Below are positions 15,469-39,308 of a DNA stretch of 64,000 nucleotides, piece by piece (the stretch's first letter is position 1; every line of letters begins with the position of its first letter). Location of the stretch: positions 6,076,001 through 6,140,000 of the forward strand of contig OZ004610.1 of assembly GCA_963924565.1 (NCBI GenBank). The letters run 5' to 3'. The position numbers and the translations under genes were made by a program. The notes under the pieces were generated by a model that saw only the letters and a program-made list of their open reading frames with translations, was not told the origin of the DNA and made no database searches. The stretch is from Ascidiella aspersa. Lineage: Eukaryota.

Positions 15469-15636
15469 CGAGTCATTTCGCCACTCGCAAAGTGTGCGCG
15501 TCGCACGCTACGAGTTTCGCTAAACACACAAGCCTCCCTGCATGCGTCAAGCTCGCCTCTCATGCCCACGAGATCCCACTTATGCTAAAAAAACCTGAAC
15601 CAATGCGATGACAGCTCGGCCCATGCAAACATGTTG
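15469..15636. promoter_or_regulatory. Conserved non-coding element (candidate enhancer) upstream of P
   Basis: Clearly aligns with 21876-22038, 29289-29451, 35718-35855 and (inverted) 39170-39308. Shared blocks TACGAGTTTCGCTAAACACACAAG, GCGTCAAGCTCGCCTCTCATG and ATGCAAACATG, although P introns and flanks do not align with the array. Confidence 0.6.
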
Positions 15637-15678
15637 ATCACGCCTCATAAAAAAAACAAAAAACAATCCGTTTTAAAG

Positions 15679-16232
15679 CAGGGGTCGGAAACCTGTGACC
15701 CGCGGGCCGGATCCCGCCATACAGTGAAAATCATCGCGCCCGTAACCTCTTTTTTAAACTTGACGCAAGTTTTTGCCTCATGTTTTTAACTAATTTAACC
15801 ACACGGAAAGGCAAACCATTTTCGCGCCTTATGAGAATCTTGTTTCACTTTGAAGTACATTTTCCTAAAGGGCCATCTCTCTAAAATGAGAGTTTCTCCA
15901 AACTCAATCTAATATAATATTCTGTGATGTAATTCGTATTTTATAACAAACAAGAGTATATAAAATATGTCCATATTTCATTTTGTTTGTGCGCAATGCG
16001 TCACGTCTTCTTGTAAATTACAAGGTTTGCCCTTTTTAACCAAACAAGCGCACTTTTTTCGCGCTTCGCGCGTTGCTCCTTTTTTCAGTTTTTTTAAATT
16101 CAATTGCATAAAACATTTAGGTGCTTTAAAAGCCACACGTTTTTATAACAAAATTGTTAGTGAAAATTTATTACGACCCCCCAAGAATTTACTGAGTTTG
16201 TCCTGTGCCTAGCAAAAGGTTGCCGACCCCTG
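15679..16232. mobile_element. hAT/Charlie-like MITE
   Basis: Ends CAGGGGTCGGAAACCT / AGGTTGCCGACCCCTG and a subterminal CCCGCGGGCC motif. TSD degenerate. Confidence 0.7.
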
Positions 16233-16844
16233 GTTAAAGGGTTATGATTGGTCAACCAAAACAGCGCTCACGTTCACACAGCCATAAAGCAAGCCCACAC
16301 TGTATAGTTCAGCATCCTATTTTTCCACCATTGACTGTATAAAACCCTTTTTAATGATTTTTGCCCGGTTGTTATTATTAGCGCAATGCTTATCATGCCA
16401 TTTTTTTCGCCTTTCAATATAAACATAACGTTAAAACTACATAAAGGCCATATTCAAAAAGTTATGACAAGTTAAACTAAATAAGCGATGCAACCACAGA
16501 TGAACGATGTGATCTTTAGACTGCCAATTTTGTCCAATCTATTTATTGCAGTTTGCTTAACCTTTGTGTGAATTTAAAATCTTCTATGACGATTTGTATA
16601 CGGAAGGCCACTTCTCCAAAGTTTAAATCAAGATGAACGTGATATTTATTTTTCGGTTTTGTGCAGCTGTGTAGTCAATGTCCCTCAACATGTTTACATT
16701 ACCTTAAAAAACACTAGTTAATCGAGTGGTTATGTGCCCAATTCGCCAAGCCTTCTTCTTTAAAAAAAAGTGTTAAAACTAAAAGTGATTTTAATTTAAA
16801 CCAATTAACATCTTTGGAACACTATTTACGGATCTGTTCATAAG

Positions 16845-16983
16845 TTTAATGGTGAAAATAACGGCCCAAATAGACGTTAAAAGCGACATGCTTTATTTTC
16901 AAACGTTTCGGCAATTTCATGTCGCTTTAAAATGAAGCATGTCGCTTTCAACGTCTATTTGGGCCGTTATTTTCACCATTAAA
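16845..16983. repeat. Long inverted repeat / foldback (~55-bp arms, ~29-nt loop)
   Basis: 16845-16899 is the reverse complement of 16929-16983 with 2 mismatches. Confidence 0.9.
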
Positions 16984-17137
16984 TTAACATCTTGTTTTTG
17001 CACTTCGCTCGTTTACACTCAACTCCAATGTATAAATGTTTATACGAATTCTCCCAAGAACGGAAGAATTGTCAGTTACAAAGAAAACCATAATAAAATC
17101 CTCGATTCACTTATTATAAAGTGTCTACTGTCTATAC

Positions 17138-17674
17138 CAGGGGTGTTCAAATGATTTCTGCCATGATTCACCACAGTCAAACCTGACAACATGATGATCC
17201 ACCAAATACGAATAGTAAACATATGGGACACGCTTTAATTTTATGGTGCTTTATTTATTTAAACGCGATAACTTTAATAGTTAATCTTGTTTAGTGTTTG
17301 TTAACCTTTCGAAGTCAGGGCGCACGTGGCGAGCGAAGCGAGTGCGATTTTTTTAGGTATACGGGCATTTCGTTTAAATTTCTTGCAAGTTTTTATTACA
17401 TTGCCGAAAATGCAAAATGTTAAAAAATATATGTCCAATATTTTTTAATGCGTTTTCCATTAACGGTAACGAAGCGCTGATCTAGTTCAAAAGACCGCAT
17501 CAAAACGTAAAAAAGCCGGACGTAGAAAGATGATTCGCACGAAGCGGGAAAGGTTTCGCACTCACGTAGTTAAAATAGTCAAAAGTTATTTGAAATTGTC
17601 AAAGGGGCGGCGGACCGAATGAATTACATTGGCGGGGCACATTCGGCCCGCGGGCCGTAGGTTGCCGACCCCTG
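17138..17674. mobile_element. hAT/Charlie-like MITE (possibly composite)
   Basis: Starts CAGGGGTGTTCAAA, ends GGCCCGCGGGCCGTAGGTTGCCGACCCCTG. Its right half is the inverted homolog of 35363-35712. Confidence 0.6.
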
Positions 17675-17958
17675 TTTTAGACTTTGGGTCTTACAATAGC
17701 ATCGAATTGGGGCTTTCTGTCGCTTACTGATATCCTCAAACGCTCACAAAGATTAGCATTTGGGAGTCTCGTTCTATGCTTGATTTTTTACAAAATTCAT
17801 TAACACTGACAATTGGTATTCACATGGAAATACTGTAAATAAGACTACATTGGAAGATCTGCACAAAACGCTGAAAAGATCCGGAACCGGATCGCAATCC
17901 GCCATTTGAACATGACCGCCGACCGGTCTATATATTGACTGAATGTGGTACTGTAGAT

Positions 17959-18341
17959 CAGTGCTCTTCAACGATGTGCACGGTGCACCCTAGGGTGCAC
18001 CAAAATATTATTGGGGTGCACCATTACTAAAAGGTATACAAGGGTACGTCACAAACTTTTAATGAATCATTAATATTTGACGTTGAATGCTGTTGTATGA
18101 CATGCAATAGTACTCGCAAGCAGCCTGCAGACAAAATCAAACTCTCACCGACAGTGTACTTCGGCAGCTCTGCTCAAAACTTCGGCAGCTCTGCTCGGTT
18201 TAATTGACATTATGACATTGGTATGCATAATGATTTTTCATATCGCTTCTTACCTCAGTTTACCTTTTAAGTAAACAGGGCGCATGAGTTCGTCAGAACA
18301 ACTTTAAGGGTCACCAAACCAAAAAAGGTTGAAGAGCACTG
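17959..18341. mobile_element. hAT MITE (CAGTGCT-ended family)
   Basis: Perfect 14-bp TIRs CAGTGCTCTTCAAC / GTTGAAGAGCACTG. Perfect 8-bp TSD CTGTAGAT. Confidence 0.92.
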
Positions 18342-18423
18342 CTGTAGATCCCCGTGATATAAACTTGTTTGTACTAGCAGGATGTGGCAAGCAATGATGT
18401 CATAGTTGTTTTTAGGCTTGCTA

Positions 18424-18860
18424 ACCACTGAGCCAGTGTAGCTCAGTTGGTGTAGCGAAGGTGCCATTATGGCTAAAGGTCCTGAGTTTAAACCTTACAG
18501 CAGATTTTCCAGTCTGTCTTTCTTTCATCATTAATCGACTGAATCGGTTAGTCTATCGAAGCCTTTCGATCTACTGCGATACGTAAGCCGGTATAGTTGG
18601 TTAAAAATGACTTAATGAGTGAGGGCTATATCACAGTTGCTATACACACATTTCATTAACTGAGTATGTCACCGTTGATATATCCCTCAATATGAAGTTG
18701 CTTGAACAAGCAATGCTTTACTGGTTGTTTGTCGACTCGCTATAACCACTGAGCAGCTTAGCTGAAAGAGCGACGGTTCCAGTACGGCCGGAGGTCGTGA
18801 GTTCGAACCCCACCGCAGGCTAGTTGTTTTTCTAGCCTGCCTTGCCTGCATCTTTGATCA
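18424..18860 (+). repeat. Two degenerate tRNA-derived (SINE-like) repeats, ~18424-18520 and ~18745-18860
   Basis: Both begin ACCACTGAGC, followed by box A-like TAGCTCAGTTGG / TAGCTGAAAG and box B-like GAGTTTAAACC / GAGTTCGAACC. The second is homologous to the element at 26520-26774. Confidence 0.6.
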
Positions 18861-19606
18861 ATCGGTTTAAGGCTTTATTTTATTTAAAAGCAGCCTTATT
18901 TTAATTTTTTTTCTTTGATTTCATACCATCAACGGTTTATGAATATTTTTCACAAAAAATATTGTTCCATCACAAATAACGTGAAAGGGCAGTAACATAA
19001 AATTATTGAGGTAAGTTTAAATAACCTCCATTTTTCATGTCAACATGGGGAAATATAATGCAACAGTACGATTCTACTATATTCTGTCAAGAGGTCCTTT
19101 CCAGAGAAACTTTTTGACCGTCTTTCGCAATTACTAAAAATGTTATCGTGTTTACGTTTCCAAGTATGTATTTAAAAAAAAAAAAATATAACCAACATAA
19201 ATTTTGTTTGGTAAATATATTGCAGTTGTTTTAAATGTTAAAATAAAGCAGGCTATACTTCGTATAAAATTGTGAGGTAAACAGGTTCCATTTTTATCAC
19301 CGTCAAAAAAACTGTTTTATTCTGTTCTGAGTACAAATTAAATTTTATTGCTAAACAACTCCTATGTTTGAAAACACTTACTTTGGAATGCTTCTAATTC
19401 TCTTAAAAATTACATTGAATTCGCCCCAACATTTTATATTGTCACCAACATAAATTAGATATTTCGACTAAATGTTTTTCATTAGAATTGTTATAAATCT
19501 TCGCGTAACGAAGCAAACTGAAACAACACACAAGTATTTTCTGGATGAATTTATTTTTTATATTACTACGGGCATTCGGAATGCGCTACTTTTCTTGGTT
19601 TCAAGT

Positions 19607-20380
19607 TTAGGCGCAGTATCTGTAGTATCCGCTGCAATACCTGACACGGTAACTACAGGTGCGTCTGCAAAACAAAAGAATAAAATTAAATGAAGTAAAC
19701 AATGGAAAATTAACCACGGTAAAAGTCGTTTTACAATGCATGCAAACAGTGCGAAAATTTAACGTTTAAAATAAATCGCTGTGACACAATATTACGTGTT
19801 AAAAGTTCCATTCGTTTTAATTATAAGTTAATTAAAGGTTGGCGTACAATTTTAAAAGCAAAAATGTGGTTCACATAGCAAAATCTGGACCCGAGTAACA
19901 CCATGTAAAACTACCCGATTAGCGAGTCCGACATTCACCTGCGCATGCGCAGTACCAAATTTAATACCTGATATTGCCGCCAACTGTAAATTGTTAAGTA
20001 GCAAATGGTGGATATTTTCCAACCATGTGGCATTAGTGTTTGAATTCTATGATATTCTTATAGGGATTGCCAAAAATCCATCTTAATTTAGTTTTGTAAA
20101 TTGGTAAAATACATGCTCTAGGGTCGGATTCGGTACTCGAAGAAATCGCACATTGAGCCGCAGTCTGACTCGAGACTAGGGAACCGGATTCGGGTTTATT
20201 TTATGGTCGGGGGTGGGACTCGGGAATTAAACTCGGGTTATTTTTAATCAATCCTCAGCCTAGTAGCAAAGTGCGACTTACACATATCTGGTGTAGCAGT
20301 AGCTGTAGGAGTTCACACAAGGAAGTGTGAATTTCCAGCTGAAGTAGCTTCCGTAGCAGAATCTCGGCATACAGAATCTT
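19607..20380 (-). pseudogene. psiL: 3' remnant of the family gene (last ~100 bp of exon 10 + exon 11) fused directly to upstream promoter sequence
   Basis: Exon 11 at 19664-19607 and exon 10 fragment at 20380-20282 (RFCMPRFCYGSYFSWKFTLPCVNSYSYCYTRYV). At 20381 the sequence switches to promoter-type DNA matching ~27523. TATA, exons 1-9 and most of exon 10 are absent. Confidence 0.88.
19835..20262. mobile_element. Probable MITE with ACTCGG/CCGAGT subterminal repeats inserted in the psiL intron
   Basis: About 430 bp of extra sequence relative to intron 10 of intact copies. Repeated ACTCGG/CCGAGT/CGGATTCGG motifs in inverted orientation at the two ends. Boundaries approximate. Confidence 0.5.
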
Positions 20381-21128
20381 ATCTCTTGCTTATCTCTTTT
20401 TCCATGTTGAGTCCCGATTAGACAAACAGGACACACCATACGGATATGATTTGTTTTCCCGCTTCGTACAAATTGATTCAATGATGTTGTAACAAGACAA
20501 AATATTTGGTAACTTGTCGACGAAAGAAGTACACTTGCTGTTCCAAGTTTTTTAACATCTCGTTTTCGAGGTGAGTACCTCATCCGCAATTTACTGACTG
20601 AAGAGGGTCTGATAATTGGTCTACAAGGACACACTTGTTAATCCGACAATCTGCAAAATTTAGATGTGGTTGTTGCAATAACAAAGAAGCGCAATCATCG
20701 TCTCTCTGTAGTGCTGAAGTAGTGATTATGCAAACAGGATGCGCATATGGATATGATCTGTTTTCCCGCAGCGTTCCATGTTAACCAAATCATGTTAGTC
20801 AAATTTAAAATATTGGTAGCTACTGCTTATTGCTACGGCAATAAATGAAGTACACTCTAATTATTCAATGTACACACATTCAAGTTTGTTTAACATAACG
20901 TTTGCGTGTTAAATGTATCATGGCTTGTGCAAAAATCACATCCAGATCGATTTGGTCTGTTTAGTTGCAATTTTGTCGTCCGGTGTTTACTCATAGGTAT
21001 TCGCTCGGATACTTGAAGTGGTGACATCGATGAATGTTCTTCAGTTTGTTCGTCGAATGTCGCGTTTCGAAATGTCAATTTGCGTCACTTGCAATTTTTG
21101 ATGCTTTCTGTGTGTGGTTAGTTTTAAC

Positions 21129-21217
21129 TCAAGCGATAAGTTATTCAGGCGATCAACTGGTCTGCCAACACAAATTCAAGCGATAAGTTATTCAGGCGAT
21201 CAACTGGTCTGCCAACA
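21129..21217. repeat. 42-bp direct tandem duplication (also at 28542-28630)
   Basis: TCAAGCGATAAGTTATTCAGGCGATCAACTGGTCTGCCAACA twice, with a 5-bp spacer. Confidence 0.9.
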
Positions 21218-21875
21218 TTTTTTAATCTACTTACCACTCACGAAATATCGATATAATTAAACAGTTCAGCATAGAGTACATTTTTCACCAAATTTTGTTT
21301 TTAGCCACTGAAATTTAAACCAGGATATGCCTAAACTGAGACTCGTTCAAATTGGTTTAAGGTTTGCAAGTAGGCCTATATTAACTTGTTGTAACAAATG
21401 TGTACAGAAAATCGAACAAATGGAAACATTTTGCTTGTCCTTGTAAAGCGTTAAAGCCGGCGACAGTTTAGGAAATTAAAAGACTCGCCAACTGAAAATT
21501 TAGAAAAGCACTGGCGAAAATTTAATGCCGAAAAACTTACCGCTAAATTCGTTTGAATCCTTGAAACATTTGCTGTAGCTCAGAAAACGTTCTTAGATTT
21601 GCGAAACCTAATTTGAAATCAATTTAAAAAATATGGATTAAAAAACAAATACAATAACATTAGGACACTAAGGAAATATCCAGAGATGGGCGGGGGACAC
21701 AACGCCATACTAAACCTAAACTTTGCGCTACAGTGCCAGTTCGGAAGCTCTAGTTTAGCATCGTATGTTGATTGAATTCGTTTTACAGATTCTTATTGTA
21801 TTATTCTTGAATACTAACCAAAGCGAGACATAGTGTAGTTTAGAAAAAGTGTTTATCATCAGTTGGGGAATCGAG

Positions 21876-22038
21876 CGAGTCATCGCGACAATTGCAACGT
21901 GTGCGCGCCATAAGTTACGAGTTTCGCTAAACACACAAGTCACACTGATTGCGTCAAGCTCGCCTCTCATGGCCACGACAACCTTCCCTTGCAAAATTGT
22001 AAAATTGCGACGAGAACTCGGCCTATGCAAACATGTTG
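21876..22038. promoter_or_regulatory. Conserved non-coding element copy upstream of psiL
   Basis: Homologous to 15469-15636. Confidence 0.55.
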
Positions 22039-23551
22039 CTTAAGTATGTTGCAAGGAAATAAATCTCTTAAAAAGCTTGCAATTGTTCAAAGAAGGCGGT
22101 GTCACCGTTCTCGGAGTAAACATTCCAATTGATCCTGCACAGTCCAGCACGCGTTTGTTTTAGTGTCTTAATCATATCACAACTGCTACTCAATTTGCCA
22201 TTTGTAGACCGTGGCTATGTGAAACGTGACGTATTCCATATTAGTTTAAAATTGAAAAATTATCCATAGACAAGGAGACAACAGATAAAAGCCGCCCCAA
22301 TTTATAATTTTTTCCGACTTGTACCATTTTCTTCTTTATTTGATTTAATTTTTTTGCATCAATTGTACCCGACATGGTTCGAGACCACCGAAAATCTTCG
22401 CATGCTTTCCGTTGTTTAAACAAAACAAAAAACGACCATTTACAAATTAGGTTTTGTTTACTTAAACTATAAATAAACGATGTACCCAAGTGGTAAGTGT
22501 CTGGTGTCCCCCAAATTAAAATCCTGGATCCGCGAATGAAGAAGTCCTGGCGAAAAACCAAACTTGCGCCAAATCAAATATTACTTTTATCACAGTGTAG
22601 GGTACCAAAGAACGAGGTGATTATGGATTAAAACATTTTAGCTTCAGGTGAAAAAAGAATTACTAAACATGAATTAGTTTAGCGATAGACTTAGAAATTA
22701 AACCTAGAGTATTATATTTTTCATAGCGTACAGTCTCCTGGTATCGCGGTATAATAAATTGGATATTTTATGAGGTTCAAATATAATGTCCAAGGCGTGT
22801 TATGTGCGTCTTTTTTATATATTTTTTAGAGTAAATATACTATGGTAGTTGTCAGTGTTGTAATGACTTAAGTTAATGACTTATGACACTAAGTGCACTT
22901 GAGTGATTTCGACAAATGACTTAACAAATTGCTAAAAATGCTGGTAGTTATACTCTACTTGAATCCGTCGAGTACAGCTTCTGATTTAGCAGGCAATTCG
23001 TTTGGACCAGAGTGGCATATTGTAAACCCTGCCAAAAGGTCTTTTGGATAAAATTGTTCATACTACCATACTTGCATTGTTATCAGATATGCCTGAGTTT
23101 CAAGTATATTTGTATGTTGTGAAATTACTTGTTCTTCTGTTTATTTCAATAAAATTATATTGTTTTAACTAAGGCAAATACGAAGTGGTACTTATCTTAT
23201 CAATAGATTAAGTATGTATTTTTTATTTGCATTAAAATTTATCTGTTGTTGAGCGATCGCGTAAATATTTTAGAGGCCAGAGGATTGTGGTTTGCCTAAC
23301 TTCGTTGATGATATGTGTCGATTATTCTTAAGAGTATCTTGTGTCTTTAATTATCTCCACCAAGTGCTAACATTCATTTAACCCCTTAGAACTTTCTTCC
23401 TTAAGAATTATTTCACACAAAAACAATAATGATTTAGATAAAACTTCGAGTATCGAAAAAACTAAAACACCAGACAGGTATATTTCAGATGAATTTATTT
23501 TTCTGTATTACTACGGGCATTCGGAATGCGCAACATTTCTTGATTTCAAGG

Positions 23552-26500
23552 TTAGGCGCAGTATCTGTAGTATCCGCTGCAATACCTGACACGGTAACTG
23601 CAGGTGCGTCTGCAAAACAAAAAAAAAGAAACATCAACAGCAGCAAACAATTTTAAAAGTTACATTACGTCACATGCAAACAGTGCAACAAATTCGAAAT
23701 AAATTATTCTGCGTCAATAAGACGCGTTAAAAGTTCTATTAGTTTTTACTGTATAATAGCTTATGACTGGCATATCAAAGCAAAAAAAGTGTATCATTAA
23801 AACGCAACAACTTACACATATGTGGTGTAGCAGTAGCTGTAGGAATTAACACAAGGAAGTGTGAATTTCCAGCTGAAGTAGCTTCCGTAGCAGAATCTCG
23901 GCATACAGAATCTTCCCACGTAACACTTGGCGCAGCAAGTGTAGTGAAGCACCAACTTGTCGAGGACGTCTGTCCAGTGGGCATCGAACTCAGCAAGGAT
24001 CGAGTTGCAGTAGATCACCAGCTTATCAGCGTAAGCATTACCAAGCACGTTGACCGAATCGGGAAGGGTTTCGCCGTGATGGAACTCATACATTGCAACG
24101 TATGTCTTCCAGAAAGCATTCTTGGACTGCAAACACAATAGTTTAGATCACAATCTTATAAATATGACAAGCTAATAATTTTCTAATAATATAAGATAAG
24201 TTAAAACTTTAGCCAAAAGATGTTTTTTGCAAACCTTGACCAAAGAATCCAACAAAGCTGATCTTTGTTTGTCGCGGCTATCTTCAAGTTTCTTCTTGTA
24301 ATCAGCAATCTTCGTAATGCGAGTGGCTAAGCATTCGGTGTACTTGTCGGTGATGCTCTTGATCATTTCGTTCACCTTAGTTGTGTAATCTGCAATGCTC
24401 TTGTGGAACTTTGCGAAGCATTCGATGAGACTAGCCAACAATTTTGCAGTGTACTCAGCAATTGCTGTATCCATTTTTTCCTTCAATTCCTGGGTAAGGG
24501 CTGCGATTTCTGCCTTTTGTTCATCAGTCAATTCAGTACTGTTGTTTCTGAAACGCAACACAAAAATTAAAATAATATAGATGCGGTTTTTTATAAGGGT
24601 CTAAATATTATCAAACGTTCCTAATATTTTGCGTGTTTTTCTTAAAAATTTTTATAGTTTATCATCAGTTAAGATTGACCAAGATTTTTATCTTACAAGC
24701 AAACGTAGTAAGCAGTCTTTGACTTGATGATGTTGGCGTGTCTTGCTTCGATGATTTCTTTGTATGCCTTAATGTAATCGACGTGGTATTGAGCCCACTT
24801 CGCCTTCCATTCATTGAATTTTGTCGTATATTCTCCTACAGCCTTTGAAAGTTGTGCTTCAAGTTCTGCTTTGATGTCTTCCACGCTCTTGTTAATGGTT
24901 CCTGTTGAAAAACACTTGTAGACAAGGAAAATATTTTATCTTTGTTTTTACATATGATGTAATAAGTTACTGTAATAAGTTACGTAATAACGTCACCACT
25001 TAATTAAGCAAAAAAATCGTGCTGTTTTTTTTTAGTACCATTGTGCAACTATAGTTAAATTAAAGCGCGATAAAATGCGTTAAGTTGTGAACCTTGTCCA
25101 TGTCATATATAACTACTAACTGTATCATACCAACGTCACATGTTTTCAATCCCTTGTAGCTGATTCCACGCCAGCAGTAGGAGTAACCGGACAAGCAACC
25201 ATACATTTTATAAGAGCACCTGGTGTAGCTCCACCAACATCCCAAAGAACGGCTAAAAAGTAAAATGCTCTTTCTAAGCTTTATTGTTATAAGTTAAGTC
25301 AAGCCTTCCCAAATATAATTTGTATTCTGTTAAATCAAAACATGTTTTTTACTGTTATTTTTAAGATCGAATTTCATTTAATATATTTACCAAGTATTGT
25401 AGTAGCTACGTTTGTAGAATTGAAGACAACCGTTGGTGAGGTAGCAGCGGTAGGAACATGTGTAGTAGGAAACCAGCTTGGCTTTGGTAATCAAAAGTTT
25501 GGCCAAATATTCCAGAGATTTGGTCTTGATCAGAATACATTCTTGGTCGTGGAACGACTGGATGACGGCATCGATTTTATCCTTGAAACCTTCGGCGTAG
25601 TCACCTAGGAAAAATATGATCGTTAAAGAATTAAATCTATTTAAACGTTATACATTTGTAATCTAAATTTACCATGAACGACTTCAAGTGTCTTCCTGTA
25701 ACGGTCTTCACGAACCTTGAGGACCGCCAAAAGATACTTGTAGTATTTGTTAACGTATTCGGTAATTTTGGTAGTCAACTGCTCGGTGTATTCTTTGATT
25801 TTTTCTTGTCTGGTTGTCAGACATTTTACGGCACTAAAATATAAATAAACGTTGTAATTTGTTTTTAATTTGTACAATCGGTAATATATTAACATAAAAT
25901 TAGAAATTTATTATTTTATAACAATTAAAACAGCAACAAATTAGTATACTTCTCAAGGAGTTTGGTGTGGTAATCAGTAATAGACTGGATCTTTGCTTCC
26001 ATCGCGGTGTTGTAGCTCTTCAAAGCCTCTGCTTTACTGTTGTCAAGATCGTCGTTGTATTTGGCAATCCTGGCGTCTCTTTTAGCTTCGAGTTCTACTT
26101 TCTCTTCGTCAGTGCTGGCTTTTCTAGAACGTCAAAAATGATTGGAATTCAATAACACTATTACGAGGGACCCAGTAAAAAAAATTTATAACACCAAATC
26201 AAATTACCAGTGATCGCTACACAAACATCTATATACCGATCTACAAATATCACCAATCTACTACTCTAGGTACTGTTATTGTTGATAAAATCAATTTGTT
26301 TGAACTACTTACGAGATATAGTACTCGTAGTATCTGTTGATGTATGTGGCGAAATCGGTCTTGTAATCAGCAATAACCTTCTCAACGTCTGCGATCCACT
26401 CGTTCTTCTTTGTGGTCATTTCGCTAACAATGGTGGCAAGACTTTCTTTGAGCAAATTGCTCATTTCAGTTTCAACTTCGGCGATGGTGCGTTCTGCAAA

Positions 26501-27196
26501 TGAAAACGAATAATATATTCACACCGCAAAGCCATCGCAGACTCGCCGAATATGTCGATCTATGATACAAGCAGAGCAAGCCAGATAAACAACTGGCCTG
26601 CAGTGAGGTTCGAACCCACGACCTCCGGTCAAGCCGGGACCGTCGGTCTACCAACTGAGCTATGCAGGCTCAGAGAGGCCTGCAGAGAGGCCGTAATCGT
26701 TGGTCACAAAGCAACATCCGAGGGGCTAGATCACAGATGTTATTAAACACATATGTTTGTGTGTGCCTTTCATCAATAATATATTTACTTAAGGAAATCT
26801 CACCGTTGCCTATCCTGTAACAATTTGACATTTTACAATTAGTTTCGAATAAGTTATTCTTCCTAAGTTTTAACCTAAAGCATGGCCATTTTGTACCTTG
26901 CCATCCATCTTTTCCGCAGTCATCTCCTGGGTAGTACTTGAGGATGGGAGCGTAGAACTTGGAGGAACACCAGGCTCTGTTGAAATAGATGTTGAAGCAG
27001 AAGGTCTGTGGTGCGGGTTGAACACAGAACTGCCTTCTGTAGTAGTAGGAGTAGGAATAGGTGCAAAATGCGTTTGAGGCCTGAAAAATATTGTCCACAA
27101 TCGTAAGCTAAAGGTCTATAAAATATAAAAAATACTCCTAAAGAAATGGCAACAACTTACGGCAATGCACGCCAGAAGAACTAGCAGAATCTTCAT
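23552..27196 (-). CDS. Copy A: secreted Tyr/Cys-rich helical protein, 652 aa. Exons 27196-27161, 27080-26897, 26493-26313, 26123-25950, 25833-25673, 25604-25391, 25252-25131, 24901-24697, 24547-24235, 24126-23816, 23609-23552
   Basis: Exon lengths 36/184/181/174/161/214/122/205/313/311/58 = 1959 nt, open frame MKILLVLLACIA|ASNAFC...RYCSGYYRYCA*. All introns GT-AG. Upstream TATA/Inr and downstream AATAAA. Confidence 0.9.
26520..26774 (-). mobile_element. 255-bp tRNA-containing retroelement-like insertion in intron 2 of copy A only
   Basis: 11-bp TSD AATAATATATT (26509-26519, 26775-26785). Absent from the same intron in B-E. Internal tRNA-like segment 26669-26596 with box A TAGCTCAGTTGG and box B GGTTCGAACC. 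Confidence 0.85.
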
Positions 27197-27238
27197 CTTT
27201 GTTTCTCTTCCAATTGAATCTCTTCCTTGGGTAGAGCT

Positions 27239-27273
27239 GAATGATTTGCAGTGAGCGCTGCAGAACTTTTATA
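27239..27273 (-). promoter_or_regulatory. TATA box + initiator of copy A
   Basis: TATAAAA 27273-27267 and TCATTC, with its A 31 nt from the TATA start. Confidence 0.75.
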
Positions 27274-29288
27274 GACTTCCATGGCGGTAAACAAGATCCT
27301 CGAATCTTGTAAAAATTACAAATCCATATTGCCGTGAATGACACTTGAATGTTTTGCTTCTTCATTACACGTGGCCACAAGCAGGAACAACTTGCCTCGT
27401 GAACGACTCTGAACGACCCTGCGCACCTGAAATAACAGCTCACTTCACAGAGATAAATCGTATTAAAATGCTCCCTGCAATATTTTGAGTTTGGATCCTG
27501 CAATAACAAATCGTGCAATTAGCTTATCTCTTTTTCCATTTTGAGTCCCGATTAAACAAACAGCACACACATGCGGATATGATTTGTTTTCCGTATCGTA
27601 CAAATTTGATTCAATAATGTTGTAACAAGACAAAATATTTCGTAACACCGACGACGAATGAAATACACTTGTTGTTCAAAGTTTTAAAGCGTTTAACATC
27701 ACAGTTTTCAAGTTGAGTGCAATGAGATGACCGCTGAGGGCTGTTGATCGGTCTGAAAAGACATATAAAATTTTTTATTGGGTTGTTGCAATAACAAAAT
27801 CGTGCAATTATTACATCTCTGAAGTCCCGATTATACAAACAGGACACACCATACGGATATGATTTGTTTTTCCGCTTCGTACAAATTGATTCAATGATGT
27901 TGTAACAAGACAAAATATTTGGTAACTTATCGACGAATAAAGTACACTTGTTGTTCCAAGTTTTTTAACATCTCGTTTTCGAGGTGAGTACCTCATCCGC
28001 AATTTTCTGACTGAAGAGGGTCTGATAATTGGTCTACAAGGACACACTTGTTAATCCGACAACCTGCAAAATTTAGATGTGGTTGTTGCAATAACAAAGA
28101 AGCGCAATCATCGTCTCTCTGTAGTGCTGAAGTAGTGATTATGCAAACAGGATGCGCATATGGATATGATCTGTTTTCCCGCAGCGTTCCATGTTAACCA
28201 AATCATGTTAGTCAAATTTAAAATATTGGTAGCTACTGCTTATTGCTACGGCAATAAATGAAGTGCACTCTAATTATTCAATGTACACACATTCAAGTTT
28301 GTTTAACATAACGTTTGCGTGTTAAATGTATCATGGCTTGTGCAAAAATCACATCCAGATCGATTTGGTCTGTTTAGTTGCAATTTTGTCGTCCGGTGTT
28401 TACTCATAGGTATTCGCTCGGATACTTGAAGTGGTGACATCGATGAATGTTCTTCAGTTTGTTCGTCGAATGTCGCGTTTCGAAATGTCAATTTGCGTCA
28501 CTTGCAATTTTTGATGCTTTCTGTGTGTGGTTAGTTTTAACTCAAGCGATAAGTTATTCAGGCGATCAACTGGTCTGCCAACACAAATTCAAGCGATAAG
28601 TTATTCAGGCGATCAACTGGTCTGCCAACATTTTTTAATCTACTTACCACTCACGAAATATCGATATAATTAAACAGTTCAGCAAAGAGTACATTTTTCA
28701 CCAAATTTTGTTTTTAGCCACTGAAATTTAAACCAGGATATGCCTAAACTGAGACTCGTTCAAATTGGTTTAAGGTTTGCAAGTAGGCCTATATTAACTT
28801 GTTGTAACAAATGTGTACAGAAAATCGAACAAATGGAAACATTTTGCTTGTCCTTGTAAAGCGTTAAAGCCGGCGACAGTTTAGGAAATTAAAAGATTCG
28901 CCAACTGAAAATTTAGAAAAGCACTGGCGAAAATTTAATGCCGAAAAACTTACCGCTAAATTCGTTTGAATCCTTGAAACATTTGCTGTAGCTCAGAAAA
29001 CGTTCTTAGATTTGCGAAACCTAATTTGAAATCAATTTAAAAAATATGGATTAAAAACCAAATACAATAACATTAGGACACTAAGGAAATATCCAGAGAT
29101 GGGCGGGGGACACAACGCCATACTAAACCTAAACTTTGCGCTACAGTGCCAGTTCGGAAGCTCTAGTTAAGCATCGTATGTTGATTGAATTCGTTTTACA
29201 GATTCTTATTGTATTATTCTTGAATACTAACCAAAGCGAGACATAGTGTAGTTTAGAAAAAGTGTTTATCATCAGTTGGGGAATCGAG

Positions 29289-29451
29289 CGAGTCATCGCG
29301 ACAATTGCAACGTGTGCGCGCCACAAGTTACGAGTTTCGCTAAACACACAAGTCACACTGATTGCGTCAAGCTCGCCTCTCATGGCCACGACAACCTTCT
29401 CTTGCAAAATTGTAAAATTGCGACGAGAACTCGGCCTATGCAAACATGTTG
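29289..29451. promoter_or_regulatory. Conserved non-coding element copy upstream of A
   Basis: Homologous to 15469-15636. Confidence 0.55.
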
Positions 29452-30964
29452 CTTAAGTATGTTGCAAGGAAATAAATCTCTTAAAAAGCTTGCAATTGTT
29501 CAAAGAAGGCGGTGTCACCGTTCTCGGAGTAAACATTCCAATTGATCCTGCACAGTCCAGCACGCGTTTGTTTTAGTGTCTTAATCATATCACAACTGCT
29601 ATTTAATTTGCCATTTGTAGACCGTGGCTATGTGAAACGTGACGTATTCCATATTAGTTTAAAATTGAAAAATTATCCATAGACAAGGAGACAACAGATA
29701 AAAGCCGCCCCAATTTATAATTTTTTCCGACTTGTACCATTTTCTTCTTTATTTGATTTAATTTTTTTGCATCAATTGTACCCGACATGGTTCGAGACCA
29801 CCGAAAATCTTCGCATGCTTTCCGTTGTTTAAACAAAACAAAAAACGACCATTTACAAATTAGGTTTTGTTTACTTAAACTATAAATAAACGATGTACCC
29901 AAGTGGTAAGTGTCTGGTGTCCCCCAAATTAAAATCCTGGATCCGCGAATGAAGAAGTCCTGGCGAAAAACCAAACTTGCGCCAAATCAAATATTACTTT
30001 TATCACAGTGTAGGGTACCAAAGAACGAGGTGATTATGGATTAAAACATTTTAGCTTCAGGTGAAAAAAGAATTACTAAACATGAATTAGTTTAGCGATA
30101 GACTTAGAAATTAAACCTAGAGTATTATATTTTTAATAGCGTACAGTCTCCTGGTATCGCGGTATAATAAATTGGATATTTTATGAGGTTCAAATATAAT
30201 GTCCAAGGCGTGTTATGTGCGTCTTTTTTATATATTTTTTAGAGTAAATATACTATGGTAGTTGTCAGTGTTGTAATGACTTAAGTTAATGACTTATGAC
30301 ACTAAGTGCACTTGAGTGATTTCGACAAATGACTTAACAAATTGCTAAAAATGCTGGTAGTTATACTCTACTTGAATCCGTCGAGTACAGCTTCTGATTT
30401 AGCAGGCAATTCGTTTGGACCAGAGTGGCATATTGTAAACTCTGCCAAAAGGTCTTTTGGATAAAATTGTTCATACTACCATACTTGCATTGTTATCAGA
30501 TATGCCTGAGTTTCAAGTATATTTGTATGCTGTGAAATTACTTGTTCTTCTGTTTATTTCAATAAAATTATATTGTTTTAACTAAGGCAAATACGAAGTG
30601 GTACTTATCTTATCAATAGATTAAGTATGTATTTTTTATTTGCATTAAAATTTATCTGTTGTTGAGCGATCGCGTAAATATTTTAGAGGCCAGAGGATTG
30701 TGGTTTGCCTAACTTCGTTGATGATATGTGTCGATTATTCTTAAGAGTATCTTGTGTCTTTAATTATCTCCACCAAGTGCTAACATTCATTTAACCCCTT
30801 AGAACTTTCTTCCTTAAGAATTATTTCACACAAAAACAATAATGATTTAGATAAAACTTCGAGTATCGAAAAAACTAAAACACCAGACAGGTATATTTCA
30901 GATGAATTTATTTTTCTGTATTACTACGGGCATTCGGAATGCGCAACATTTCTTGATTTCAAGG

Positions 30965-33900
30965 TTAGGCGCAGTATCTGTAGTATCCGCTGCAATACCT
31001 GACACGGTAACTGCAGGTGCGTCTGCAAAACAAAAAAAAAGAAACATCAACAGCAGCAAACAATTTTAAAAGTTACATTACGTCACATGCAAACAGTGCA
31101 ACAAATTCGAAATAAATTATTCTGCGTCAATAAGACGCGTTAAAAGTTCTATTAGTTTTTACTATATAATAGCTTATGACTGGCATATCAAAGCAAAAAA
31201 AGTGTATCATTAAAACGCAACAACTTACACATATGTGGTGTAGCAGTAGCTGTAGGAATTAACACAAGGAAGTGTGAATTTCCAGCTGAAGTAGCTTCCG
31301 TAGCAGAATCTCGGCATACAGAATCTTCCCACGTAACACTTGGCGCAGCAAGTGTAGTGAAGCACCAACTTGTCGAGGACGTCTGTCCAGTGGGCATCGA
31401 ACTCAGCAAGGATCGAGTTGCAGTAGATCACCAGCTTATCAGCGTAAGCATTACCAAGCACGTTGACCGAATCGGGAAGGGTTTCGCCGTGATGGAACTC
31501 ATACATTGCAACGTATGTCTTCCAGAAAGCATTCTTGGACTGCAAACACAATAGTTTAGATCACAATCTTATAAATATGACAAGCTGATAATTTTCTAAT
31601 AATATAAGATAAGTTAAAACTTTAGCCAAAAGATGTTTTTTGCAAACCTTGACCAAAGAATCCAACAAAGCTGATCTTTGTTTGTCGCGGCTATCTTCAA
31701 GTTTCTTCTTGTAATCAGCAATCTTCGTAATGCGAGTGGCTAAGCATTCGGTGTACTTGTCGGTGATGCTCTTGATCATTTCGTTCACCTTAGTTGTGTA
31801 ATCTGCAATGCTCTTGTGGAACTTTGCGAAGCATTCGATGAGACTAGCCAACAATTTTGCAGTGTACTCAGCAATTGCTGTATCCATTTTTTCCTTCAAT
31901 TCCTGGGTAAGGGCTGCGATTTCTGCCTTTTGTTCATCAGTCAATTCAGTACTGTTGTTTCTGAAACGCAACACAAAAATTAAAATAATATAGATGCGGT
32001 TTTTTATAAGGGTCTAAATATTATCAAACGTTCCTAATATTTTGCGTGTTTTTCTTAAAAATTTTTATAGTTTATCATCAGTTAAGATTGACCAAGATTT
32101 TTATCTTACAAGCAAACGTAGTAAGCAGTCTTTGACTTGATGATGTTGGCGTGTCTTGCTTCGATGATTTCTTTGTATGCCTTAATGTAATCGACGTGGT
32201 ATTGAGCCCACTTCGCCTTCCATTCATTGAATTTTGTCGTATATTCTCCTACAGCCTTTGAAAGTTGTGCTTCAAGTTCTGCTTTGATGTCTTCCACGCT
32301 CTTGTTAATGGTTCCTGTTGAAAAACACTTGTAGACAAGGAAAATATTTTATCTTTGTTTTTACATATGATGTAATAAGTTACTGTAATAAGTTACGTAA
32401 TAACGTCACCACTTAATTAAGCAAAAAAATCGTGCTGTTTTTTTTTAGTACCATTGTGCAACTATAGTTAAATTAAAGCGCGATAAAATGCGTTAAGTTG
32501 TGAACCTTGTCCATGTCATATATAACTACTAACTGTATCATACCAACGTCACATGTTTTCAATCCCTTGTAGCTGATTCCACGCCAGCAGTAGGAGTAAC
32601 CGGACAAGCAACCATACATTTTATAAGAGCACCTGGTGTAGCTCCACCAACATCCCAAAGAACGGCTAAAAAGTAAAATGCTCTGTCTAAGCTTTATTGT
32701 TATACCTTCCCAAATATAATTTGTATTCTGTTAAATCAAAACATGTTTTTTACTGTTATTTTTAAGATATCGAATTTCATTTAATATATTTACCAAGTAT
32801 TGTAGTAGCTACGTTTGTAGAATTGAAGACAACCGTTGGTGAGGTAGCAGCGGTAGGAACATGTGTAGTAGGAAACCAGCTTGGCTTTGGTAATCAAAAG
32901 TTTGGCCAAATATTCCAGAGATTTGGTCTTGATCAGAATACATTCTTGGTCGTGGAACGACTGGATGACGGCATCGATTTTATCCTTGAAACCTTCGGCG
33001 TAGTCACCTAGGAAAAATATGATCGTTAAAGAATTAAATCTATTTAAACGTTATACATTTGTAATCTAAATTTACCATGAACGACTTCAAGTGTCTTCCT
33101 GTAACGGTCTTCACGAACCTTGAGGACCGCCAAAAGATACTTGTAGTATTTGTTAACGTATTCGGTAATTTTGGTAGTCAACTGCTCGGTGTATTCTTTG
33201 ATTTTTTCTTGTCTGGTTGTCAGACATTTTACGGCACTAAAATATAAATAAACGTTGTAATTTGTTTTTAATTTGTACAATCGGTAATATATTAACATAA
33301 AATTAGAAATTTATTATTTTATAACAATTAAAACAGCAACAAATTAGTATACTTCTCAAGGAGTTTGGTGTGGTAATCAGTAATAGACTGGATCTTTGCT
33401 TCCATCGCGGTGTTGTAGCTCTTCAAAGCCTCTGCTTTACTGTTGTCAAGATCGTCGTTGTATTTGGCAATCCTGGCGTCTCTTTTAGCTTCGAGTTCTA
33501 CTTTCTCTTCGTCAGTGCTGGCTTTTCTAGAACGTCAAAAATGATTGGAATTCAATAACACTATTACGAGGGACCCAGTAAAAAAAATTTATAACACCAA
33601 ATCAAATTACCAGTGATCGCTACACAAACATCTATATACCGATCTACAAATATCACCAATCTACTACTCTAGGTACTGTTATTGTTGATAAAATCAATTT
33701 GTTTGAACTACTTACGAGATATAGTACTCGTAGTATCTGTTGATGTATGTGGCGAAATCGGTCTTGTAATCAGCAATAACCTTCTCAACGTCTGCGATCC
33801 ACGCGTTCTTCTTTGTGGTCATTTCGCTGACAATGGTGGCAAGACTTTCTTTGAGCAAATTGCTCATTTCAGTTTCAACTTCGGCGATGGTGCGTTCTGC

Positions 33901-34332
33901 AAATGAAAGCGGGTAATATCTTTACTTAAGGAAATTTAACTGTTGTCTACCCTGTAACAAGTTGAGATTGATAATTAGGTTTTAATATGTTATTCTTCTT
34001 AAATTTTAACCTAAAGCATGGCCATTTTGTACCTTGCCATCCATCTTTTCCGCAGTCGTCTCCTGGGTAGTACTTGAGGATGGGAGCGTAGAACTTGGAG
34101 GAACACCAGGCTCTGTTAAAATAGATGTTGAAGCAGAAGGTCTGTGGTGCGGGTTGAACACAGAACTGCCTTCTGTAGTAGTAGGAGTAGGAATAGGTGC
34201 AAAATGCGTTTGAGGCCTGAAAAATATTGTCCACAATCGTAAGCTATAGGTCTATAAAATATAGAAAATACTCCTAAAGAAATGGCAACAACTTACGGCA
34301 ATGCACGCCAGAAGAACTAGCAGAATCTTCAT
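30965..34332 (-). CDS. Copy B: secreted Tyr/Cys-rich helical protein, 652 aa, 11 exons
   Basis: Near-identical to A. ATG at 34332, exon 1 34332-34297, stop 30967-30965. Splice sites retained and no stop or frameshift seen. Confidence 0.9.
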
Positions 34333-34374
34333 CTTTGTTTCTCTTCCAATTGAATCTCTTCCTTGGGTAGAGCT

Positions 34375-34409
34375 GAATGATTTGCATTGAGCGCTGCTGG
34401 ACTTTTATA
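34375..34409 (-). promoter_or_regulatory. TATA box + initiator of copy B
   Basis: TATAAAA 34409-34403, TCATTC 34380-34375. Confidence 0.75.
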
Positions 34410-35362
34410 GACTTCCACGGTGGTAAACAAGATCCTCGAATCTTGCAAAAATCACAAATCCATATTGCCGTGAATGACACTTGAATGTTTTGCTTGTTCA
34501 TTGCACGTGGCCACAAGCAGGAACAACTTGCCTTGCGAACGACACTGAAGAGCTCTGCGCACCTGAAATAACAGATCACTCCACATAGATACATCATTTT
34601 AAAGAGTTTTCTGGAATATTTTAAGTTTGTATGCTGCAATAACAAATCGTGCAATTAGCGTCTCTCTTTCTGTGTTGAAGTCCCGATTATACAAACAGGA
34701 TACACAATGCGGATGAGATTTGTTTTTCCACATCGCAAAAAAGTTGATGCAATGATGTTGAGTCCCAATTATACAAACAGGATGCACAATGCGGATATGA
34801 TCTGTTTTCCCGCCATGTACAAAGTTGATTCAATGATGTTGTGAGAAGAAAAATATTCGTTAACACCGACGACGATTGAAGTACACTTGTTGTTCAAAGT
34901 TTTAAAGCGGTTAACATCACATTTTTTGAGTTGAGTACCTCTTCCGCAGTCGCTGACTTCTGAGGGTCTGATGATCGGTCTACAAAGCCAAACTTGTTGA
35001 TTCAACCACCTGCAAAACCTTAGGTTTGGTTATTGTAATAGATATCTCGTGTAATTATCGTCTCTCTACATCACTGATTAGTTACTATGCAAACAGTAAG
35101 TCAATACGGATATCGCCTGATTTCCGCGTCGTTAGATGTTAACCAAATGATGTTCGCTAAAATGAAATTATTGAGTTACGGCAAACAGATAAAGTACACT
35201 CGAGTTCTTCAATGTACACCAATTTAAACCGTTATACGTTGTGTTTGCGAGTTGAGTGTTTTTTTAAAAGCTCGCTGATTGCAAAGGCTCTCATGGTTTG
35301 TACAAGAAACGTCGATTTGGTTTGATTGATTGTACTTGTGTCGTCCGGTGCTTACTCTAGAT

Positions 35363-35712
35363 CAGGGGCGGCAACCTACGGCCTGCGGGCCGGATTCGGC
35401 CGGCCGATGTAATTTATCCGGGCCGCCGTCTCTTTGACAAACTAGACACGAGTCCATTTCACACACTTTTTTACTATTTTAAATACGTCATTGTGAAAAA
35501 TTGTTGCGCTTTCCGTGAATGTTTATTTACGTCCGGTTTGTTTACGTTTTGCTGCTGCCCATTTCAATTAGATTCGAAATTCTTTACCGTTGCGCCGTGG
35601 AAGGCTGCAAAGTGCGTCGCGCAACTACGGAAACGTATTAGAAATATGGGACATATATTTTTTAACAGTTTATTTTTTTCGTTACTGTAATAAAATATAT
35701 ATTTTTTTTGCT
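35363..35712. mobile_element. Truncated hAT/Charlie-like MITE upstream of B
   Basis: Starts CAGGGGCGGCAACCTACGGCCTGCGGGCCGG, an inverted homolog of ~17400-17674. Second TIR missing. Adjacent upstream DNA present in the A-type unit is deleted. Confidence 0.65.
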
Positions 35713-35717
35713 AACAC

Positions 35718-35855
35718 TTGCAACGTGAGCGCGCCACAAGTTACGAGTTTAAGTCCCACTGAAAGCGTCAAGCTCGCCTCTCATGTAAAAACAACCTTCC
35801 CATTCAAATTACACTGTAGCTTTACAACGAGAACTTGGCCCATGCAAACATGGTG
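35718..35855. promoter_or_regulatory. Truncated conserved non-coding element copy upstream of B
   Basis: Homologous to 15469-15636, but clipped at one end and lacking the CGCTAAACACAC block. Confidence 0.5.
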
Positions 35856-36749
35856 CTTAAGCCTTAATGGAAAAAAAATCTGTTCAAACGCTTGCAATTA
35901 ATCACAGAAGATAGCTTCACCGTTCGTAAAGACAAAAATCCAGTGCATCCTGTACAGTCCAGCACGCGCTTGTTTTAATATTATAATTGTATCACAACTG
36001 CAATTCAATTTGCCATTTGTAGATCGTGACTGTGTGAAACGTGACGTATTCCATACTAGTTTAGGCTGAAAATTATTAATAGACAAGGGACAGCAAATAA
36101 AGTTTTCCGTTGTTTAAATATTTTACGTGTATTAACTTAAAAAACCCGAATATAATGACCATTTACAAGTTACGTTTTTGGTACCATGTATCCGAACTCA
36201 GAAAACTTTTATATCCGGTGTCACCTACCATTCGCAATTAAAAAGTCCTGGCGATTAAAGCAAACTAATGACTTGACCTAATTGCACTTAAGTCACTGTG
36301 TTGAAATGATTTGATCAAAGTGATTTGGACAAATAACTTCACATATGTTAAGATCTTTTGTTGAATACTTTTCAATAAAATTGGGTTATTTTAGCCAATT
36401 CTGAAATGTGAAAATGTTGACTTGCTATTTGTTTTGTTTTTGTGTTTGTTTTTAAAAATGTTGATCACAATGTAAAATTCCAAGGTTTAAAAGTTTAATA
36501 TTTTTTATCACTTGGACAGCAAATTATTTGGATTGAGACTTGACTTGCTATTTATTCAAAATCACTCGACTTGAATTTTCCATGTTGTGCAAATGAATTG
36601 ACTAGGTTTTAAGTCATTTACGTTTTTTAGAGAAAAATGTTCATGTATTAAGCGTACCGTAAATGTTATCCTTATTTACATTGTTATGAAGTATATTTGT
36701 CTTTAAATATGTATATATGTATTATTTTAATTTTTATGTTGCGTTTCAG

Positions 36750-37587
36750 AAACAACAGTACTGAATTGACTGATGAACAAAAGGCAAAAATCGCAACCCT
36801 TACCCAGGAATTGAAGGAAAAAATGGAAACAGCAATTGCTGAGTACACTGCAAAATTGTTGGCTAGTCTCCTCGAATGCGCTGCAAAGTTGAATGCTTGG
36901 CCACTCGAATTACGAAGATTGCTGATTACAAGAAGAAACTTGAAGATAGCGGCGACAAACAAAGATCAGATTTGTTGGATTCTTTGGTCAAGGTTCGTAA
37001 AAATCATCTTTTAGCAAAAGTTTAAATTTGTCTTATATAATTAGAGAATTAGTAACTTGTTATATTTCTATTATTGTGATATAAACTCTTGTGTGTTTGC
37101 AGACCAAGAATGCTTTCTGGAAGACATACGTTGCAATGTATGAGTTCCATCACGGCGAAACTCGTCCCGATTCGGTCAACGTGCTTGGTCTTGCTTACGC
37201 TGATAAGCTGGTGATCTACTGCAAAGTTGGTGCTTCACTACACTTGCTGCGCCAAGTGTTACGTGGGAAGATTCTGTATGCCGAGATTCTGCTACGGAAG
37301 CTACTTCAGCTGGAAGTTCACACTTCCTTGTGTTAATTCCTACAGCTACTGCTACACCAGATATGTGTAAGTTTTTGCGTTTTAATGATACACTTTTTTG
37401 TGTATCATTATTTGATACGCAAATCAGTAACTAAAATTTCGAACTTATAATATCGCACTGTTTTCATGTGACGTAATGTAACTTTTAAAATTGTTTGCTG
37501 CTGTTGATGTTTCTTTTTTTGTTTTGCAGACGCACCTGCAGTTACCGTGTCAGGTATTGCAGCGGATACTACAGATACTGCGCCTAA
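36750..37587 (+). pseudogene. psiR: 3' remnant (exons 9-11) with two frameshifting deletions
   Basis: Exon 9 starts at 36750 and lacks 70 bp (AAGTT|GAATGC). Exon 10 lacks 47 bp (TGCAA|AGTTGG). Exon 11 ends at stop 37585-37587. Exons 1-8 are absent. Confidence 0.9.
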
Positions 37588-39169
37588 CCTTGAAACCAAG
37601 AAATGTAGCGCATTTCGAAAGCCCGTAGTAATACAGAAAAATAAATTCATCTGAAATATACCTGTGTGCTGTTTTAGTTATTTTGTTACTCGAAGTTTTA
37701 TCTAAATCATTATTGTTTGTGTGAAATGATTCTTTAGGAAGAAAGTTCTAAGGGGTTAAATGAATGTTAGCACTTGGTGGAGATGATTAAAGACACAAGA
37801 TACTCTTAAGGATAATCGACAAATTATCATCAACGAAGTAAGGCAAACCAGAATCCTCTGGCTCTAAAATATTTGCCCGGTCGCTCAAAAACTGTTAAAT
37901 TTTAATATAAAAATAAAAAAAATACCTTTTAAATCTTTTTTTAAGTACCACTTCGTATTTGCCTTAGTTAAAACAATATAATTTTAATAAAATTAACAGA
38001 AGACCAAGTAATTTTACAACATACAAATATAGTTGAAACTCGGGCATATCTGATAACAATGCAAGTATGGTAATATGAACAATTTTATCCAAAAGACCTT
38101 ATGGCAGAGTTTACAATATGCCCTCTGGTCCGAACAAATTGCCTGCTAAAGCAGATACTCTACTCGACGGCTTCAAGTAGAGTATAACTACCAGCATTTT
38201 AAGCAATTCGTTAAGTCATTTGTCGAAATCATTTAAGTACACTTAGTTCAAGTCATTAACTTATGTAAGTACAACACTGACAAATAGGCTACCCTAGTAT
38301 ATTAACTATAAAAAAAATATATATATAAAAGACGCACATAACACGCATTGGACAATATATTTGAACATCATAAAATATCCAATTAAATTTACTGCGGTAC
38401 TAGGAGACTGTACGTTATGAAAAATATAATACTCTAAGTTTAATTTTCCAAGTCTATACGCTAAACTAAATTCTTGTTTGTATTAATAAAATTCTTGTTT
38501 TACCTGAAGCTAAAATGTTTTAATCCACAATTAACTCGTTCTTTGGGACCCTACACTGTGATTAAAGTAATATTTGGCAAAAAGTAAAAGCGTATATAGG
38601 CATAAGATTGATTTATTCACCAGGACTTCTTGATCTTCGGCTCAAGGAATTTAGTTTGGGGGACACCGGACATAAAAGTTTTCGAATATATGGATACATC
38701 AATGGATGTTAACTTTTTTACCAGTTGGGTACATCGTTTATTTATAGTTTAAGTTAACAAAACGTAATTTGTAAATTTACGTTATACTCGTTTTTTAATT
38801 TAAGCAACGGAAAGCATGCGAGTTTATTTTGTGGCCTCGAACGCTGTCGGGTAAAAGTGATGAAATCAAATAAAAAAGAAAATCTATTTAAATGGTAAAA
38901 GTTGGAAAAACTTTTGTTTTGGCGCGGCTTTGGTCCATGTCAATGGCTAATTTTCCCATCTTAAATTAATACGGAATACGTCACGTTTCACACAGCCACG
39001 GTTTACAAATGACAAATTAAATTGCAGTTGTAACAGGAAAACGTTAAAACAAGCGCGTGCTGGACTGTACAGGATGCTCTGGAATTTTGTCTTTGCGAAA
39101 GGTGACCCTACCTTCTGTGATTAATTACAAGCCTTTGAACCGATTTTTTTCTTTCAATAAGGCTTATGA

Positions 39170-39308
39170 AACATGTTTGCATGGGCCCGGTTCTCGTCAC
39201 AATGCTCCAGGGCATGAGAGGCGAGCATGACGCATTCTGTGGGACTTGTGTGTTTAGCGAAACTCGTAACTTGCGGCGCGCTCACGTTGCAAATGTCGCG
39301 ATGACTCG
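39170..39308. promoter_or_regulatory. Conserved non-coding element copy (inverted) upstream of C
   Basis: Reverse complement of the 15469/21876 element, in the same orientation relative to its gene. Confidence 0.55.

Follow-up and report, generated by a model that had tools for sequence, protein, structure and literature searches.

We analyzed a stretch of 64,000 nucleotides from Ascidiella aspersa (assembly GCA_963924565.1, contig OZ004610.1, forward-strand positions 6,076,001 to 6,140,000; hereafter the window), which carries a cluster of related genes consisting of a diverged paralog, P, a gene remnant, psiL, and an array of close copies, A to G, the last two lying past the window end. Upstream of P and several array genes is an element with a core of 168 bp, a genuine, constrained and cluster-restricted non-coding module. 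Better conserved than the DNA around it, it is likely to be a distal enhancer, probably inherited by P and the array as sister lineages. Under the mechanism that we favor, three motif blocks in the element would bind transcription factors and boost a TATA promoter 1.4-2.8 kb away; having inherited the element as one of two sister lineages, P would have kept the blocks unchanged and the many-copy array would let the element decay, with the surviving array elements perhaps serving neighboring genes.

A conserved element upstream of diverged paralogs

A preliminary description, made from the sequence of the window, had placed the element 1.3-2.9 kb upstream of P, psiL, A, B and C, in one orientation relative to the gene. 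Self-comparison of the window recovered all five copies at those positions and in that orientation (genes P, A and B being on the minus and C on the plus strand), and the distances to the start codon agree with the range given, at 1504 (P), 2093 (A), 1386 (B) and 2755 bases (C); psiL has neither start codon nor promoter, and its element lies 1466 bases from a deletion joint at 20410. A genome search added a sixth copy past the window end (G000:C4:6144835-6145000), 2072 bases before the intact gene G. In the window self-comparison the P element is 78% identical to that of A over 168 bases (E 3e-32), 77% to that of psiL and 80% to that of C over 122 bases; across the 168-bp core, identity between P and the array is 79-81%, and BLAST E-values of 1e-25 to 1e-32 within the window exclude chance as the source of the likeness. 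Three runs of the P core, at 15509-15532, 15542-15571 and 15615-15636, are identical to the array majority. Decayed flank homology between P and the array amounts to about 440 bases in all, spanning an insertion that resembles a miniature inverted-repeat transposable element (MITE). The element has a GC content of 0.49-0.55, against 0.37 for the window, and is also CpG-rich relative to it.

The same description had held that P shares about half of its residues with the array proteins and that its introns do not align with theirs. Indeed, protein identity is 45.2-45.7%, and none of the ten introns aligns (best E 0.85); nor do the promoter or the 3′ flank of P align with a profile of the array copies. 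The coding DNA of P and the array is 55% identical overall and 61% at first and second codon positions.

Within the tract that P and the array have in common, P agrees with the array majority at 139 of 167 core positions, versus 50-61% in the flanks (scan p 5e-5), and the 28 core mismatches are clustered, leaving match runs of 30, 24 and 22 (p 0.002 for their sum). When P is left out, 119 of 140 core columns are invariant among A, C and G, versus 803 of 1168 in the flanks. A blind scan of the array had its top window at 68836-69001 (extended coordinates), which agrees with the core as defined from P (scan p 0.003; the scan left out promoter-proximal windows near the homogenised exons, which score as high or higher). 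This excess of conservation, seen when P is compared with the array and also in the array alone, argues for selection on a cis-regulatory module. Thus, of the original proposal of an enhancer under purifying selection, the selection gains support from two comparisons, and the enhancer function stays a reading of the pattern of conservation. The second haplotype has just 2 differences in the 168 bases of the P element, both outside the blocks; reads labeled as from other organisms (runs X3 and X6, on the F-G stretch) have few differences, with no piece spanning the element. A further run, X4, reached nothing but repeats upstream of P and was excluded.

Motif words

The words picked out earlier as Forkhead-, octamer- and AP-1-like are present, TAAACAC and GAGTCAT in five of the six copies and ATGCAAAC in all six; as binding sites, the octamer- and AP-1-like words depart from the actual consensus. 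The true octamer, ATGCAAAT, and the true AP-1 site, TGASTCA, occur in none of the six copies. The B element is without TAAACAC and GAGTCAT, two of the three named words. A Forkhead match, RYAAAYA (with 0.71 matches expected per 168 bases), occurs in every copy within ATGCAAACA, outside the context of TAAACAC, and TGCGTCA is found in five of six. The middle block may resemble Pax2/5/8 and cAMP response element (CRE)/C-EBP sites. A Forkhead factor may bind the ATGCAAACA block; the identity of the factors at the motif words is a guess, and these words matter only through lying in conserved DNA.

The gene family and the distribution of the element

The genes are full-length homologues of the Ciona intestinalis ‘endostyle-specific precursor’ (NP_001107601.1 / BAA24830.1 / O44237), to which the array is 41% and P 37% identical over about 640-650 residues; a second Ciona paralog, LOC100186110, scores above that record. 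The named homologues are all ascidian (Ciona savignyi, Clavelina and Styela). We take the C. intestinalis protein to be the one called CiEnds1, expressed in a glandular zone. From the name of this relative we infer that the cluster genes are made in the endostyle. According to one account (PMC9953650), the zones of that organ express TTF-1, Pax2/5/8, FoxE4, FoxQ1 and FoxA.

The family was recovered by a HMMER search with a three-row exon alignment (13 matches; P0009, an unrelated repeat protein, was excluded from the trees). A word-based protein search with exon 10 found none among 19 candidates; Pfam searches of the family exons gave sub-threshold helical matches only, and a search of the ESM Atlas with the Ciona homologue gave no usable match. 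The initial idea that these might be epidermal marker genes (HrEpiC) gained no support. A literature search, in which subscription journals were sparsely covered, found no cis-regulatory study of this gene family.

In the genome there are 41 exon-10 family matches, of which 11 belong to this cluster and the other 30 are spread over five further locations. The family loci (C1:3.77 Mb, C3:7.47-7.61 Mb, C3:8.07-8.17 Mb, C4:6.08-6.15 Mb, C4:11.57 Mb and C7:25.10-25.16 Mb) are mostly tandem arrays of near-identical copies, and Styela and Clavelina also have several near-identical family copies on one contig.

Hence, the earlier label of family-specific is not borne out: 30 of the 41 family matches lie outside the cluster, and the element profile has no match at E-values up to 10 in 340 kb that hold 22 of these 30 (the 5′ flank of one being cut off). 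Judged by these searches, the element is cluster-specific and not family-specific. The many dispersed genomic matches that would mark a transposon fragment did not appear either. Two DNA searches and two pattern searches with 20-23-base words found all copies of the element in one gene cluster of the 309-Mb genome, apart from 2 isolated two-mismatch words without flanking similarity (match counts in the genome search being lower bounds). In raw DNA reads of a second animal (run X18), depth over the P element is 7.8, versus 5.2 measured and 6.3 expected for single-copy DNA, and the repeats on both sides of it reach 840-1700. The single-copy depth and the cluster-only matches together indicate that the element is not a dispersed repeat. 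A pattern scan of metagenomes gave 5 matches, each just a 20-23-base word without flanking similarity, which we rejected as chance.

Loss of the element and points against the enhancer reading

The absence of the element from D, E and F goes back to one deletion joint common to all three, and intact element and intact gene occur together at P, A and G only. In run X18, the depths of which miss reads less than 80% alike, the exons and introns of the genes have a 68-fold depth, equal to 11-13 copies per haploid set, and the joint of the D/E/F type a depth of 52 (8-10 copies).

Several observations weigh against a constrained enhancer. The longest match run taken alone has p 0.06, and the deficit of polymorphism in the P element is not significant (2/168 vs 17/467, p 0.18, among the rows listed, 40 of 122). 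Among array copies, conservation of the blocks does not clearly exceed that of the spacers (differences A-G 7/76 vs 13/87; C-G 7/71 vs 5/69), array-invariant sites fail to predict the matches of P (p 0.33), and gene conversion among array copies could also raise core identity. Moreover, three of the seven full-length array genes (D, E and F), all with open frames, have no trace of the element; of the five array elements, two stand before a copy that is dead or has a stop codon (psiL and C), and that of B is damaged; and in run X18 the bin with the array element has a depth of 9, or 1.5-1.8 copies, which, set against the gene depth, implies that most copies in that animal lack it. The make-up of the array itself varies between animals, with 7 full genes in the assembly versus about 11-13 in run X18, where upstream DNA of the G type is nearly absent.

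We read the conservation pattern as suggesting that the blocks were strongly constrained along the P branch and that constraint is weaker in the redundant array copies. Either one element serves several genes, or the copies without it are weaker, or the array needs it little. An RNA run (X19), which barely holds the genes, has almost no array reads, none on the first exon of P and none on the two elements examined, with 4 reads at one listed exon site.

Inheritance or later transfer

In the protein tree P is sister to the array (support 92/91, not starred), and in the element tree it falls outside all array elements, on the longest branch; the two together fit inheritance of the element by both lineages. 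An identity of 80% is also usual among conserved non-coding elements of Ciona (PMC3836708). For this protein tree JGI_P0013, win_G and one Styela row were removed and six other loci of this genome added; an earlier tree, before these changes, left the position of P unresolved.

A later transfer is a serious rival, which we hold to be possible though not probable: the tract would have moved to P from the array, or in the opposite direction, long after the two gene lineages separated, and then been kept as the enhancer of P, the route being either ectopic conversion or loss of an array gene whose upstream DNA stayed behind next to P. This would give the element the same function by a different origin, and the probabilities of the two readings overlap. 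Several observations favor it. The spacers of P differ from those of A, C and G by 32-34%, versus 63-67% at four-fold sites (82-88 sites; p 2e-5). The decayed flank homology continues across the MITE-like insertion, and nothing else non-coding aligns. In the protein tree the P-array path, at 1.34, exceeds those of Ciona orthologue pairs (0.44 and 0.85), and the next branch, the C7 cluster, is just slightly deeper and has no trace of the element. Finally, deletion and conversion are common here: psiL has lost its gene body, and array exons are 97-100% alike versus 70-83% for upstream DNA. Against a transfer stands the place of P outside the array in the element tree. Moreover, the spacers are no clean clock, being somewhat constrained within the array (7-15% vs 20-23% in flanks); the higher GC content of P at third codon positions (0.72 vs 0.59 in the array) inflates the four-fold distance; and flank identity is biased upward, only the alignable parts being seen.

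A bolder and rather unlikely extension would be that a local rearrangement carried the enhancer from one to the other of two anciently diverged paralogs and so linked P with the array, whose copy number varies and in which one or two surviving copies would drive at least 10 element-less genes in the manner of a small locus control region.

Alternative functions

A neutral relic, that is, functionless duplicated array upstream DNA beside P whose conservation reflects recent copying and conversion, is unlikely. It would agree with an element that is dispensable in D, E, F and most copies of the second animal, with blocks that are unremarkable within the array and with the non-significant polymorphism test; it does not account for the contrast of core and flanks (139/167 vs 50-61%, p 5e-5), the clustered mismatches (p 0.002) or the independent conservation peak within the array.

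We regard as quite improbable an insulator, silencer or other chromatin element that separates tandem units without activating them. In head-to-tail units the element does lie after the 3′ end of one gene and before the promoter of the next, and conservation alone cannot separate an activator from a boundary; however, even in the divergent B/C pair and at P it is oriented with the gene downstream of it, and it is missing from the intervals that separate C, D, E and F. As every gene has a separate TATAA, 77-96 bases upstream of its start codon, the element is probably not the promoter.

Highly improbable is a small non-coding RNA gene or an unannotated upstream exon, the former having been offered as the alternative at the outset. 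The constant orientation and the elevated GC and CpG content would suit either; yet Rfam has no match on the element, the consensus folds have both-side changes at 0/27 and 1/36 pairs with an unfavorable covariation term, folding z-scores run from -1.43 to +1.71 (all eight folds above -1.5), and indels of 28, 5, 2 and 1 bases exclude a reading frame common to the copies. No read of run X19 falls on the element, which, given how barely that run holds the genes, is a weak point. Two weak Rfam matches (E 0.16 and 0.31) lie at least 1.2 kb from the element.

That the element is a fragment of a dispersed transposon is barely credible, for although high-copy repeats adjoin the elements of P and B, the genome searches gave only the cluster copies and the two isolated words, and its depth is that of single-copy DNA beside repeats at 840-1700. 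It could still be a piece of a very old, since-vanished transposon family. Related MITE-like insertions with CAGGGG ends are found at 15679-16232, 17391-17681 and 35356-35695, one of them adjoining the B element at its missing proximal end.

Genes and other features of the cluster

Genes A to G have 11 exons and 652-654 codons, and the exon sizes of P match theirs; the start of the P protein appears signal-peptide-like. The coordinates are collected in Table 1. The nonsense change of C is a single-base difference (window 42960-42962) seen in C only, and may be an allele or an assembly error. Across the array (window 23508-60232 and beyond), exons are far more alike than upstream DNA, the latter having mosaic tracts of 90-99% identity, and by this pattern the array is under concerted evolution by conversion. 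A second gene remnant, with parts of exons 9-11 and an inversion at 36890, lies between the B and C elements (36202-38071). An intron of A contains, at 26521-26773, a tRNA-like sequence (Rfam 40 bits; tRNA-Ala by ARAGORN) with close copies at other loci, probably a tRNA-derived short interspersed nuclear element. Downstream of P, at about 2100-3720 on the minus strand, is a cyclin gene with Cyclin_N matches in two exons.

Table 1. Features of the cluster, in window coordinates; read depths are from run X18
Feature	Position	Strand	Remarks
P element core	15469..15636	+	168 bp, GC 0.54, 14 CpG
Wider P-array homologous tract	15332..15679	+	Core and decayed flanks (50-61% in forced alignment)
P-array homology resumed past insertion	16231..16325	+	7.9 bits, against 2.8 bits for best control (430 kb)
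psiL element	21876..22038	+	99% identical to element of A
A element	29289..29451	+	From window self-comparison
B element, damaged	about 35714..35859	+	Gene-proximal end missing; 12-bp deletion in first block
C element	39170..39308	-	28-bp deletion in long spacer
Gene P	5240..13965	-	11 exons; model of 638 aa with a 1-base uncertainty at last junction; TATAA at -96
psiL remnant	19553..20380	-	End of exon 10 and exon 11 only
Gene A	23508..27196	-	11 exons; open frame, 652 aa
Gene B	30921..34332	-	Open frame, 652 aa
Gene C	42063..45534	+	Stop codon at residue 164 in this assembly
Gene D	49401..52885	+	Open frame; without element
Gene E	56749..60232	+	Open frame; without element
Genes F, G	starts 64099 and 71072		Past window end; F without element, G with sixth element
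MITE-like high-copy insertion	15679..16232		554 bases, terminal inverted repeats; splits distal flank of P tract; depth about 840 vs 5-8 at its left end
High-copy repeats between P element and P promoter	14498..15001		Depth up to about 1700
Joint replacing element-bearing stretch before D	46451..46711	+	About 580-720 bases replaced, depending on duplicated piece taken as joint
Same joint before E	53799-54057		
Same joint before F	61149-61407		

Significance and comparison with known systems

If it is an enhancer, the 168-bp element would be a compact candidate for driving expression in the secretory endostyle, an organ related to the thyroid. The cluster is also a natural deletion series, with the element intact at P, A and G, damaged at B and absent at D, E and F, which suits the study of enhancer loss and sharing. 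If the transplant reading is true, the element would be the first cis-element for the family of endostyle-secreted filter-net proteins. The repeated independent amplification of a Tyr/Cys-rich helical protein may outweigh the element in interest.

A conserved upstream module common to neighboring paralogs is an ordinary kind of object. In the locus control regions of tandem gene clusters, few elements serve many gene copies; the likeness here lies in the few elements and many genes of run X18, and action at a distance in this cluster, like expression of the copies that lack the element, is conjecture. With the Ciona ‘endostyle-specific precursor’ the cluster genes have full-length homology in common; the difference is that the protein tree does not settle orthology between them. 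The conserved non-coding elements of Ciona (PMC3836708) have identities of 71.0-96.8% (median 81.7%), and some of them drive reporters. Like our element, they are short non-coding stretches at about 80% identity on an unalignable background; they differ in belonging to orthologous loci of two species and in being linked to developmental regulators, duplicated elements having been left out of that study. In contrast, the element described here is common to paralogs of one genome, beside a predicted secreted structural protein and across a protein distance of 1.34 versus 0.44 and 0.85. Enhancer hijacking at the amphioxus Gdf1/3-like and Lefty genes (PMC10794066) illustrates that a gene may gain a neighbor’s regulatory DNA by rearrangement, as would a later transfer to P. 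In the amphioxus case, for which reporters were run, the gene moved beside the enhancer of an unrelated gene, whereas in this cluster the element would have been copied from one paralog to another.

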